Position numbers and translations under genes: made by a program. Shown in pieces: positions 14,248 through 60,535 of a DNA stretch of 64,000 nt. Origin of the DNA: a virus; IMG/VR virus record IMGVR_UViG_3300022602_000001; one strand, given 5' to 3'. The notes beneath the pieces were generated by a model. That model did not search any database and had not been told where the DNA came from. It was given only the letters and a program-made list of their open reading frames with translations. Position 1 is the first letter of the stretch. The number at the start of each line of letters is the position of its first letter.

Positions 14248-14279
14248 TTTGCGGAAGTCTCACTAGTTTCCTATATTTG
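14248..14279 (+). promoter_or_regulatory. Bacteroidota primary-sigma promoter
   Basis: TTTG-N20-TATATTTG matches the -33/-7 (TTTG/TAnnTTTG) consensus; 14 nt upstream of ATG 14294. Confidence 0.75.
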
Positions 14280-14293
14280 TAAAAATAAAAGTT

Positions 14294-19762: not shown

Positions 19763-20014
19763 ATGACAGAAACAAGAACATTTTTGAGAGTGAGGTGCGC
19801 CAAGGAGGACCCACACGGCCTGACACAGGTGGGAGAGCACTATACGGTGACCTCCTTCACCAAAGAGGGGAACTTCCTGCTGATGGAGTGCGATCCGCCA
19901 GACCCGTACAACTGTTTTGATTCCAACAGGTTTGAGGAGGAGGGACTCGTCCACTTTGACGTGGACTACGACCAGGACCTGGCGTACGAGGAAGAGTACT
20001 GGCAGAACAACTGA
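19763..20014 (+). CDS. Hypothetical protein
   Basis: ATG at 19763 after CAGTT leader. Confidence 0.6.
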   Translation: MTETRTFLRVRCAKEDPHGLTQVGEHYTVTSFTKEGNFLLMECDPPDPYNCFDSNRFEEEGLVHFDVDYDQDLAYEEEYWQNN

Positions 20015-20109
20015 TTTGGCTGAAAGTACAGTGAGAAGACTGGGCGGATTTTGGCCCGCGATTGTAGAGCTTACGCTCCCGCACGCCAATGCGGGAAAAT
20101 TTAGCCAAA
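20015..20109 (+). ncRNA. Candidate multibranch structured RNA
   Basis: TTTGGCTGAA/TTTAGCCAAA closing stem with internal hairpins GGGC/GCCC, GCG/CGC, TCCCGCA/TGCGGGA. Confidence 0.4.
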
Positions 20110-20197
20110 CTAAAAAGATAAATTTTTCTTACAAAAGAATGTTGAGTACTTTTACTATGTAACAACAAAACAAGCATATTTATAAACAAACAGCAGA

Positions 20198-20350
20198 ATG
20201 AGGCACACAACATCACACAAATCAAATTGGAAGGCAGAATCCGTTATAAGAAATCAGCCGGAGTATTGCTTTATGCCCATTCAAAGTAACGACGGGATGA
20301 GCAGAGTCTCAAAGAGTTCGGAAAGTAATGAAGAGGACGATTGTAAGTAA
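20198..20350 (+). CDS. Putative attenuator leader peptide (50 aa) of the tRNA array
   Basis: MRHTTSHKSNWKAESVIRNQPEYCFMPIQSNDG...; lies between promoters and a terminator that precedes the first tRNA. Confidence 0.6.
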   Translation: MRHTTSHKSNWKAESVIRNQPEYCFMPIQSNDGMSRVSKSSESNEEDDCK

Positions 20351-20370
20351 ATTATAAATCTCAAATCATG

Positions 20371-20411
20371 AAAAGCCCCGAACCTAAAAAATTCGGGGTT
20401 TTTAATTTTTT
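20371..20411 (+). terminator. Intrinsic terminator (candidate attenuator) upstream of tRNA-Phe
   Basis: AAAAGCCCCGAA-loop-TTCGGGGTTTTT then AATTTTTT. Confidence 0.8.
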
Positions 20412-20413
20412 CC

Positions 20414-20486
20414 GGTGCTCAAGCTAACTTGGTAGAAGCGTAAGTTTGAAAAACTTAAGGACTCGGGTCGAAACCGAGGAGCACCA
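20414..20486 (+). tRNA. tRNA-Phe(GAA)
   Basis: GGTGCTC/GAGCACC acceptor; TAAGT-TTGAAAA-ACTTA. Confidence 0.85.
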
Positions 20487-20542
20487 CAAAAAAACAAACA
20501 TGAAAAAAATAACAATGCATTAGGTACCAAACCTAATGTAAA

Positions 20543-20725
20543 GTGAAAGTAAAAAAACTAAAAAATTCATCCTGCAGCAGAGAATACACAATAAGGATGA
20601 AGGGCTACAAAGTGTACTGTACAGTGTGCAACAGACGAGCAGGAGTGTTCAATGCATACTGTGGAAAGGAGAGCAAAAAACAAAACAGAAACTGGAAAAA
20701 CTACAGAAAAACAAAATGGAAGTGA
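20543..20725 (+). CDS. Small basic Cys-containing hypothetical protein
   Basis: ORF within tRNA array; CxxC and RNWKNYRK. Confidence 0.5.
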   Translation: MKVKKLKNSSCSREYTIRMKGYKVYCTVCNRRAGVFNAYCGKESKKQNRNWKNYRKTKWK

Positions 20726-20775: not shown

Positions 20776-20849
20776 TCCCTCTTAACTCAGCGGTCAGAGT
20801 ACTATACTTTTAATATAGGAGTCGCTCGGTTCAAATCCGGCAGGGGAAC
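20776..20849 (+). tRNA. tRNA-Lys(TTT)
   Basis: CTATA-CTTTTAA-TATAG; GGTTCAAATCC T-arm. Confidence 0.8.
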
Positions 20850-20882
20850 ACAGTTGATCTTTGACATAACAAAACCAAGAAA

Positions 20883-20956
20883 CACGTCTTAGCATAAGAA
20901 ATGCAGCAGGCCTCCAAAACCTTGCATGGACAGAGTTTGATTCTCTGAAGACGTGC
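20883..20956 (+). tRNA. tRNA-Trp(CCA), imperfect
   Basis: ACGTCTT/AAGACGT; CTCCAAA loop; CAGAG/CTCTG T-stem. Confidence 0.65.
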
Positions 20957-20961
20957 AGCAC

Positions 20962-21035
20962 GCTCTAGTAGCTCAATTGAAGAGAGCATTTGACTACGAA
21001 TCAAAAGGTTGAACGTTTGAGTCGTTCCTAGAGCC
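20962..21035 (+). tRNA. tRNA-Arg(ACG)
   Basis: GCTCTAG/CTAGAGC; TTTGA-CTACGAA-TCAAA. Confidence 0.88.
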
Positions 21036-21047
21036 AATTTTTTAAAT

Positions 21048-21120
21048 AGTCGAGTGGCCGAGAGGATTAAGGCACAGGGCTGCAAACCCTGCCACGTCAG
21101 TTTGACTCTGACCTCGACTT
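21048..21120 (+). tRNA. tRNA-Cys(GCA)
   Basis: AGTCGAG/CTCGACT; CAGGG-CTGCAAA-CCCTG. Confidence 0.88.
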
Positions 21121-21176
21121 CTAAAATAAATTTTTTTGTTTGATTGATTGTTTGTACATTTATCTGACTCTAATAT

Positions 21177-22326: not shown

Positions 22327-22500
22327 CTAAAAATAAAATGTGAAGACTAAAAAAATAAACTTTTTTCATTCATCCGCATTGTATACTTTTACTCTATAAT
22401 AGCAACTAATAGATCTTTGAAAATAAAGACAATAAACTTACACGTAAGGGATTGTGAGCCAGCCGAAAGGTTGCAATTACTCACTTTCCCAGGAAATTTT

Positions 22501-44029: not shown

Positions 44030-45184
44030 ATGTCCAACGTAAAAATATCTCAACTTCCATCAGTGTCTTCTGTGGCTCAATCGGATTTAATTCTGGTGGT
44101 TGCCTCTGGGGTCACATCAAACATATCCACGGCCAACCTGGGCAGCTCAATCACCGCCTCAGGCGTTTTGGGAGGAGCTGCCAACTACGTTCCAGTTTGG
44201 AGCGGTTCAACAAACTTTACCAGCAGCGCTCTGTACCAAACAGGACAACTCGTGGGTGTTAACACCAGCTCTCCAAGCTACAGCCTCGACGTGAGTGGCA
44301 CGGCCAACTTCAGGTCTGGCACCGTGGCCACTGGATCTTCGGTGATCACCGGCAGCCTTCAGGTGATAGGAAATATCATCGGATACAACAGCTCTTCCTA
44401 TGTGGGAAACTTGGCAGGAGCAGCAGCCTCTGCAATTTCCTACTCAGTGTTTTTTGGAGAGCAGTCGGGACTTAGCGCATCCTACTCCGCCAATGCAACC
44501 TTCTTGGGAGCTTTTGCCGGCCTGAATGCGTACAGCTCCTCTTTTGCTACCGCTGTGGGATACGGAGCCGGGATATCCATGTCAAATGCAGGGAATTCTT
44601 CTGTGTTCGGTCCTTACTCTGGCTATGGATCCATGGGGTCCATAGGATCGGTAGCCCATGGGATTTACGCAGGAGCGGCCACTTCTGGGTCTGTCTACTC
44701 AATCTTCATAGGGCCCTACGCGGGGTACCAAATGTCGGGGTCGTCGTACAGTACAGTGATTGGATACAACGCAGGATTCGCCAACACGCTTGGAAACAAC
44801 AACATTCTGATAGGGACTGAGGTGGGGCTGCCAAGCGGAAGCTCTAACTCAGTCAACATAGCAGGCCTTATATTTGGATCAGGGTCCTACTTTAGCACTG
44901 GCTCAATCAGCTCTGGATCCGCCAACGGAAGAGTCGGAATAAACCAGCCGAACCCCAGCTACTCGCTGGACGTCAGTGGGTCGGGAAAATTCAGCGGCGG
45001 ACTGACAGTCACAGGAAGCGTGATCGTAACAGGGTCTGTGTCGCTGTACTCTGTAATGACACTGGTTCCACTTGGAGCACTTCCCACTTTTGGGGTGAGC
45101 ACTGGGTCGTTGGCAACCTCTGGATCCCACTTGTACTTCTACAATGGATCAGGCTCTCTGAACGGTTGGGCCCAGGTAATATAA
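44030..45184 (+). CDS. Putative tail fibre/virion adhesin-like protein
   Basis: N-terminal KISQLP, G.xAG beta-roll repeats, repeated VG.N...PSYSLDVSG. Confidence 0.7.
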   Translation: MSNVKISQLPSVSSVAQSDLILVVASGVTSNISTANLGSSITASGVLGGAANYVPVWSGSTNFTSSALYQTGQLVGVNTSSPSYSLDVSGTANFRSGTVATGSSVITGSLQVIGNIIGYNSSSYVGNLAGAAASAISYSVFFGEQSGLSASYSANATFLGAFAGLNAYSSSFATAVGYGAGISMSNAGNSSVFGPYSGYGSMGSIGSVAHGIYAGAATSGSVYSIFIGPYAGYQMSGSSYSTVIGYNAGFANTLGNNNILIGTEVGLPSGSSNSVNIAGLIFGSGSYFSTGSISSGSANGRVGINQPNPSYSLDVSGSGKFSGGLTVTGSVIVTGSVSLYSVMTLVPLGALPTFGVSTGSLATSGSHLYFYNGSGSLNGWAQVI

Positions 45185-45200
45185 TTATAAATCTACAGTT

Positions 45201-50174: not shown

Positions 50175-50246
50175 AAAAACCAAAAATAAATTTTTTTTAT
50201 TTCGAGGATTTGTTGTACATTTACTATCTAAAAAATAATAAAAGTT

Positions 50247-60441: not shown

Positions 60442-60535
60442 AGTAAGATAAATTTACTTTTGTTTGTGGAATTTTTGAAAATAAATTTTTTTGTTTAAAA
60501 AATTAGTCCTACTTTTACTCCGAAATCAAACTACG

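Follow-up and report, generated by a model that had tools for sequence, protein, structure and literature searches.

The 64,000-nucleotide (nt) viral record IMGVR_UViG_3300022602_000001, which in its full length is called the window here, carries a short open reading frame (ORF) and a terminator hairpin at the entrance of an array of transfer RNA (tRNA) genes. Judged from its sequence, this element is probably a ribosome-mediated transcription attenuator with a pan-tRNA leader. The leader belongs to a family whose members share the layout of the locus, and in the relatives the layout is conserved, an alternative pairing covaries with the terminator, the ORF is under coding constraint, the leader holds all amino acids and codons for all tRNAs, and its content matches the array. 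For the family as a whole we propose, with belief and doubt in about equal measure, that it is a pan-tRNA sensor: a leader of about 46 codons would have been selected to hold at least one codon for each tRNA of a near-complete operon, and would be connected to a terminator and an antiterminator such that shortage or cleavage of any tRNA, or slowed decoding, switches on the replacement set.

An earlier note, made from the window alone, had described a 50-codon ORF at 20198-20350, a terminator at 20371-20411 and tRNA-Phe beginning 3 nt past it, and all three were found at these positions. The terminator is a 12-base-pair (bp) hairpin (20371-20403) followed by TTTTTAATTTTTT up to 20411, and its fold of -15.7 kcal/mol (z -3.6) was equalled in 0 of 200 shuffles. 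All genes in the neighbourhood of the leader lie on the + strand, and 63 nt separate the leader stop codon from the start of tRNA-Phe. Because the terminator abuts tRNA-Phe and leaves no room for a promoter of its own, the conserved tRNA-Phe can only come from read-through, and from this lack of promoter space the leader ORF and tRNA-Phe would share one transcript. The two motifs that had been taken for a candidate antiterminator, GTTCGG (20316-20321) and CCGAAC (20378-20383), are likewise present. When the 3' arm of the terminator was omitted from the fold, the antiterminator strand paired with 20378-20385 in a helix of 6 bp plus 2.

Statistics obtained from the window alone were partly not significant, so the case rests on relatives. 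The neighbouring 119-amino-acid protein has 61 relatives in IMG/VR, and synteny was kept in only one genome (L001-L004), in which a 49-codon ORF, a different GC hairpin and tRNA-Phe follow each other in the same order; the window's neighbour gene is 76% identical to that of L001. An exact pattern of the window-type N terminus led to one relative only, and a pattern of the tRNA-Phe anticodon arm opened up the family. A word-indexed peptide search returned 17 proteins. An exhaustive profile search of 50%-identity cluster representatives returned 27 matches, one of them an unrelated repeat protein, and the true members were 34-57 amino acids long, save two longer calls caused by upstream starts. 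From viral loci and contig look-ups, 25 distinct phage or metagenome loci were assembled with their DNA, the homologous ORF having 44-50 codons. In 24 of these 25 loci the leader, the terminator and tRNA-Phe occur together, the terminator hairpin with its T tract lying 20-31 nt past the leader stop and tRNA-Phe starting 55-68 nt past it, so the layout for which the earlier note had suggested looking in related phages is indeed shared by them. The array behind the leader runs Phe-Lys-(Trp)-Arg-Cys-Pro-Ala-Val onward in the relatives; in L072, L081 and L095 it contains 23-24 closely spaced tRNA genes.

The sole copy without terminator and tRNA-Phe, L101 (1235-1378 and downstream), has a peptide that lost His, Pro and the CGN Arg codon and looks like a decaying module; a different tRNA-like gene was seen by eye downstream of it. 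At L079:2900-3144 and L095:290-738 the leader stands directly behind another tRNA gene with the box before its ATG kept, from which it appears that the module can also sit inside an array. L066:5930-6400 (same as L071) holds a closely similar tRNA-Phe with a Cys-rich ORF of about 68 amino acids in place of the family leader and with no terminator, and the module is therefore not universal among phages with this tRNA-Phe.

We then compared the candidate antiterminator across the relatives. In 21 of 24 loci, the ORF segment with the longest perfect complementarity to the terminator 5' arm is found 19-34 nt from the ORF end, and in folds of the nascent RNA without the 3' arm, the 5' arm paired with a late-ORF segment in 23 of 24, usually together with an inner helix that holds the stop codon. 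This antiterminator strand falls within the last 6-11 codons of the ORF. In a MAFFT alignment (A4), where it occupies columns 31-37, the strand and the arm stay in register with 89% of cells paired, and changes on both sides occur in four of the seven pairs (11 cells). None of 500 shuffles of this alignment reached the paired share, the number of double-change cells or the covariation score, 23 of 500 reached the count of four double-changed pairs, and slid controls gave 9-55% pairing. Read by eye, the alignment indicated that double changes arose several times, from A-U to G-C in three groups, from G-C to A-U in L094 and in L089/L091, and from C-G to U-A in the window and L095. In a swap test, duplexes between each arm and its own antiterminator strand averaged -12.7 kcal/mol against -10.3 kcal/mol for swapped partners (permutation P < 1e-4). 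The pairing thus occupies a homologous place in the relatives and covaries with the terminator arm; the antiterminator of the earlier note holds at the level of the family, whereas its 6-bp form in the window is not significant alone. The terminator state is more stable than the antiterminator state by 1-10 kcal/mol, so the alternative helix must win kinetically, before the 3' arm is made.

Coding constraint differs along the leader. Over alignment columns 1-39 the proportion of nonsynonymous differences (pN) was 0.25 against 0.53 for synonymous ones (pS), and over columns 40-52, where the antiterminator strand lies, pN was 0.51 against a pS of 0.56; the near equality in the tail indicates that constraint there acts on the RNA and not on the protein. 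At the conserved Gly, Leu, Glu, Cys, Pro and Asp columns, several alternative codons occur for the same residue. CGT (Arg) and ACG (Thr) are fixed beyond expectation and form, in most relatives, a small hairpin over codons 15-20 (AACGUA/UACGUU, from the E-R-R-N-T-L codons, for example L072:3043-3060), with an A-U, G-U, G-C series at one pair. The antiterminator strand is not involved in this hairpin, which may be a polymerase pause site that synchronises the ribosome. Taken together with an outer GGCAA/UUGCU helix, the hairpin was rejected as a firm structure, the consensus being only -2.1 kcal/mol with little covariation.

The content of the leaders was then examined in the family. All 20 amino acids occur in 36 of 43 distinct family peptides (41-51 residues), six lacking one and L101 lacking two, while random windows of the same length from 319 long ORFs of these phages were complete in 0.4-1.7%. 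Among representatives below 60% identity, 17 of 22 were complete compared with 9.4 +/- 2.1 after shuffling within columns (P = 6e-4, a value which, like the other shuffle P values, tells less for our reading than it seems to, because the members are related and their independence is overstated). Completeness therefore exceeds what the conserved columns would give and is kept by compensation as well. When Leu, Arg and Ser were split by codon box and Ile into ATA and ATH, giving 24 groups, all 24 were present in 17 of 22 leaders (44-49 codons; background probability 2e-4 to 1e-3). The 32-36 codons that lie at least 12 nt upstream of the antiterminator strand in the relatives carry 21-24 of these groups, with Pro at the border, and there are no tandem regulatory codons, unlike in the classical definition of an attenuator, so that the arrangement would suit a generalised form of it.

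The leaders also match the arrays that they precede. In L072, every one of the 24 array tRNAs finds a strictly cognate codon among the 46 of the leader (24/24; null 16.6 +/- 2.1, P = 7e-5), and the leaders of L076, L089, L081 and L095 sample 19/19, 21/21, 22/23 and 23/24 array tRNAs, respectively. The comparison of codon diversity with random ORF windows that the earlier note had asked for thus came out far beyond random for the family, in which the diversity is kept through divergence, whereas the whole 50-codon ORF of the window is ordinary (19 amino acids, P = 0.19).

In the mechanism that we propose, transcription would start at the phage promoter-like motif just 5' of the leader, and the polymerase would make the leader, then the antiterminator strand and then the terminator. 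A ribosome that keeps pace would cover or unwind the antiterminator strand and the helix around the stop codon, the hairpin would form, and transcription would end 3 nt short of tRNA-Phe. Should a scarce or damaged tRNA or starvation hold the ribosome within the first 32-36 codons, or should no ribosome load at all, the antiterminator strand would capture the emerging 5' arm; the terminator would then be blocked and the polymerase would read into the tRNA genes, after which RNase P would free tRNA-Phe. As a net effect, decoding capacity would feed back negatively on tRNA supply, with the array off when decoding is efficient. The position of the sensing codons, the antiterminator strand, the stop codon within the inner helix and the distance of 20-31 nt to the stem together give a geometry that fits a ribosome-mediated switch. 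We infer the translation of the leader, its coupling to transcription, the direction of the switch and a natural trigger, and speculate that starvation or anticodon nucleases provide the latter. In the window, the limit of the sensing zone at codon 36 assumes a ribosome footprint of +12 nt, which is our own assumption, and all 21 codon-box groups of the window leader fall within codons 1-36. The generalised attenuation advanced in the earlier note gains comparative support from layout, covariation and content; its mechanism stands as the conditional scheme given here, and the window copy is a weak example of it.

To define which genes the leader might control, the array and its promoter-like motifs were examined in the window (Table 1). 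By relaxed ARAGORN the array comprises Phe, Lys, Trp, Arg(ACG) and Cys, then Pro, Ala, Val, Gln, Ser, His, Ser, Ile and Asn, then an Asn-like gene, Glu, Asp, Met, Thr, Gly and Arg(UCU), and farther on Leu(UAG); tRNA-Tyr was not found. ORFs break it up, as do two copies of a promoter-like composite motif, ATAAAYTTTTT-N15-32-TAYWTTTA, of which there are 4 copies in 64 kb (starts 21126, 22355, 50186 and 60481) against 0 expected. Part of it, TACTTTTA, resembles the Bacteroidota -7 box TAnnTTTG, and the motif also lies upstream of the leader in L074/L076, L084 and L086. It is probably one promoter class of the phage, and the copy before the window leader would act as a promoter; the promoter motifs that had been noticed before the leader are in any case real and recurrent. 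Because of the internal motifs, control by the window leader probably extends no further than Phe, Lys, Trp, Arg and Cys, and these motifs, suggestive as they are, bring us to the view of the earlier note that only part of the array may be gated. A scan for the composite motif found none within the compact arrays of L072, L081 and L095. The second box before the leader ATG is kept in nearly all relatives. Boxes like TATATTTATAAA have 13 matches in the window against 2.6 expected, and several of these matches, among them 14272-14283, 20175-20186 and 45180-45191, stand 9-11 nt before start codons; they could be a second promoter type with very short 5' leaders, or a translation-initiation signal.

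Table 1. Coordinates of the leader locus and associated motifs in the window.
Feature	Position	Strand	Basis or remark
Leader ORF, 50 codons	20198-20350	+	ORF list; diverged member of a family of 41-51-amino-acid peptides
Proposed sensing zone, codons 1-36	20198-20305	+	A ribosome held there would leave the antiterminator strand free
Antiterminator 5' strand (AG.GUUCGG), proposed	20313-20321	+	Within the ORF, 27-35 nt 5' of the stop codon
Intrinsic terminator	20371-20411	+	5' arm 20371-20382, loop 20383-20391, 3' arm 20392-20403, then T tract
tRNA-Phe (GAA), array gene no. 1	20414-20487	+	ARAGORN; Rfam 51.5 bits
tRNA-Lys, Trp, Arg(ACG), Cys	20776-21121	+	Block 5' of the first internal promoter-like motif
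Promoter-like composite motif	20119-20148	+	A/T-rich ATAAATTTTT box, spacer, TACTTTTA; one-mismatch copy read by eye
Second conserved box (CATATTTATAAA)	20175-20186	+	11 nt before the leader ATG
Internal promoter-like motif	21126-21162	+	Between tRNA-Cys and tRNA-Pro
Second internal promoter-like motif	22355-22391	+	Motif scan
Further copies of the composite motif	50186-50223, 60481-60517		Motif scan

Judged alone, the window copy gives a mixed picture. A recount agreed with the earlier note that its first 33 codons encode 19 amino acids with 28 different codons, and among 33-codon windows of 43 long ORFs of the window, P was 0.011 for at least 19 amino acids and 0.009 for at least 28 codons, the cut at codon 33 being a post hoc choice. 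Its peptide is 21-33% identical to those of relatives, which makes it the most diverged member, and all invariant columns are kept (M, H7, W11, E14, Y-C-F). It is the weakest member of the family, a relaxed copy that may be under relaxed selection. A frameshifted C terminus for this copy was considered and rejected, as the other two frames stop at once when the sequence is read by eye.

Several observations weigh against an attenuator that senses all tRNAs, and many of them come from this window copy. Besides the ordinary amino-acid count over its 50 codons, its 6-bp complementarity is accompanied by a nascent-leader fold of z -1.7 that 10 of 200 shuffles equalled, and its duplex between arm and antiterminator strand (-6.1 kcal/mol) ranks 12 of 16. 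The window leader has no Leu and no CGN codon and reaches 21 of 24 codon-box groups, although tRNA-Leu is present in the array; it samples 18 of 21 array tRNAs (P = 0.08) and has a Tyr codon, for which no tRNA was detected. The hairpin of codons 15-20 is missing from it, and promoter-like motifs sit inside its array. At the level of the family, the core antiterminator helix comprises just 5-9 bp and has a lower stability than the terminator, and a protector hairpin for the antiterminator strand was not found consistently in the nascent-RNA folds of relatives, so that the untranslated default would be read-through (ON), unlike in trp-type attenuators. The model would also need close coupling of transcription and translation in a probable Bacteroidota host. 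Finally, residue order is conserved beyond what composition needs, with a W-Q-x-E-R-R-N-T-L-x-L-G-Y-C-F core followed by D-V-Q-G-K-P; this conservation would be partly at the RNA level, through the hairpin of codons 15-20, and a role of the peptide itself is also a possibility.

The conserved order, which includes non-unique residues (Leu, Gly, Asn, Thr), leads to the first alternative, in which the attenuator is real and its signal is specific. Arrest peptides are typically conserved in sequence, and a nascent peptide with the G-Y-C-F and Q-G-K-P blocks might arrest the ribosome for one ligand or factor, as in TnaC, SpeFL and SecM, or one codon such as that for Phe might matter, given that the first gated gene is always tRNA-Phe. 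A single signal does not account for amino-acid completeness that is kept by compensation beyond column conservation, nor for leaders that sample all array tRNAs, and there is a single Phe codon with no tandem regulatory codons. In addition, the layout is kept in the window and L084 copies despite the loss of much of the conserved core, and from the geometry, a stall at K-P would sit near the antiterminator strand, mask it and favour termination. We consider a specific signal unlikely.

Similar doubt applies to the reading that this is an ordinary gene for a small phage protein, served by a promoter and a terminator of its own, in which case the tRNAs would come from leaky read-through or, in the window, from internal promoters, and the hairpin would mainly end the mRNA or stabilise it after RNase P cleavage. 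Such a gene would explain that the peptide family is conserved at the amino-acid level, that promoter-like motifs lie inside the window array, and that the window antiterminator is weak and its leader/array match not significant. It would give no reason for all 20 amino acids, for both boxes of Leu, Arg and Ser or for the array-matched tRNA set, nor for C-terminal codons that are neutral as protein yet covary with the terminator arm. The ORF also never occurs away from the module of terminator and tRNA-Phe, save in the one decayed copy. Nothing in Pfam or PHROGs matched the leader below E = 0.06, searches for fused or longer members of the family turned up none, and AlphaFold on the leader alignment gave one low-confidence helix (predicted local distance difference test, pLDDT, 58.6), which is weak evidence either way. 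By these searches and this model there is no evidence of a folded protein or a known family, and we regard a small-protein gene as improbable.

Least probable, and by a clear step, is a conditional terminator that is switched without translation, by a protein or RNA factor (a tRNA or a phage antiterminator protein) or by temperature stabilising the helix between arm and antiterminator strand, with the ORF incidental: a covarying alternative helix alone is no proof of ribosome involvement, and there is a weak PHROG similarity to a transcription antiterminator family (E = 0.23, not significant), but the 43 peptides share reading frame, start codon, length and coding constraint, the antiterminator strand always lies in the last 6-11 codons with the stop 20-31 nt before the hairpin, which is only sensible for a ribosome, and neither a T-box nor any other Rfam family reached threshold. 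T-box-like tRNA binding was rejected on the same Rfam result, and the best Rfam hits, Thr_leader (26.2 bits, threshold 55) and ohsC (27.2 bits, threshold 50), both matched the terminator only.

The window phage encodes PolA, ribonucleotide reductase, GroEL, ThyA and a GH108 lysozyme. Its nearest cultured phage is Flavobacterium phage immuto, with 54% PolA identity, and from this relation its host is probably a member of the Bacteroidota. A blastn search of the region against 50,697 phage records gave tRNA matches only and a tblastn search of the leader peptide against the same records gave nothing; Flavobacterium phage immuto was absent from both results. Three further structures or ORFs were seen next to the locus. 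Upstream, the spacer 20015-20110 (the upstream gene ends at 20014) has a closed multi-hairpin fold of -35 kcal/mol (z -3.2, 1 of 200 shuffles equal) with a 10-bp closing helix around four hairpins, the last of which, CCCGCA/UGCGGG, has AAAAUUU directly behind it; the structure might terminate the upstream operon or represent a small structured RNA. Just past tRNA-Phe, a 10-bp hairpin lies at 20516-20540 (-12.1 kcal/mol, z -4.2). Between tRNA-Phe and tRNA-Lys stands a small Cys-rich ORF (20588-20725, about 45 codons from ATG 20588), and the same slot in L001 holds a 217-amino-acid ORF that by eye is of zinc-finger or homing-endonuclease type.

If the leader works as a pan-tRNA sensor, attenuation would extend to tRNA genes besides amino-acid and synthetase genes, and its logic would be widened, in one leader of about 46 codons, from a single amino acid to the entire code. 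Such a leader would act as a homeostat for decoding and might automatically counter host defences that target tRNAs, which would give a testable link between phage tRNA arrays and such defence systems. Two predictions follow: read-through should rise upon starvation for any one amino acid or cleavage of any one tRNA, and deleting the leader's sole codon of one type should abolish the response to that type alone. As a small, naturally occurring gauge of decoding capacity, the leader could then also be used as a translation-stress reporter in Bacteroidota. The reason for large phage tRNA sets has been debated for some fifty years (PMC10264068), and large arrays have been proposed, as counter-defence or codon supplements, to replace depleted or cleaved host tRNAs (PMC10264068, PMC11555353). 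In the parts consulted, these two papers treat what phage tRNAs do and not the control of their expression, and a full-text search of the literature turned up no case of phage tRNA genes controlled by a leader or an attenuator.

In its parts the element resembles the attenuators of amino-acid operons (trpL, hisL, pheL, leuL and the multivalent thrL and ilvL) and of pheST (pheM), in which a short ORF and a terminator precede the regulated genes, an alternative helix uses the 5' arm and the position of the ribosome decides. The multivalent thrL and ilvL leaders already sense two or three amino acids. Unlike in amino-acid operon leaders, the regulated genes here are tRNAs rather than biosynthetic or synthetase genes, each of about 24 tRNA types has one or a few codons without tandem codons, and there is no 1:2 protector hairpin; the phage leader is much longer than trpL and hisL, is conserved in sequence and has no sequence homology to these leaders. 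The pyrBI leader of E. coli has 44 codons, and coupled translation decides whether its terminator forms. It is similar to the phage leader in length and in that translation coupled to the polymerase sets the outcome at the terminator, but it works in the opposite sense: in pyrBI the ribosome enters the terminator and coupling gives read-through, whereas here 20-31 nt separate the stop codon from the hairpin that follows, and termination is the outcome that translation would favour. Translation-stress attenuators include bmrCD and Listeria lmo0919. Another, vmlR of B. subtilis, precedes an antibiotic-resistance gene (PMC9226507). Attenuators of the vmlR type are not known from phages or in front of tRNA genes; they sense ribosome-stalling drugs and control resistance proteins, and their leaders are not known to be selected for every amino acid. 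They too combine a leader ORF with a terminator and an antiterminator, and in logic they are the closest to the proposed switch, since read-through follows whenever the ribosome slows down on the leader and does not depend on the shortage of one particular amino acid.

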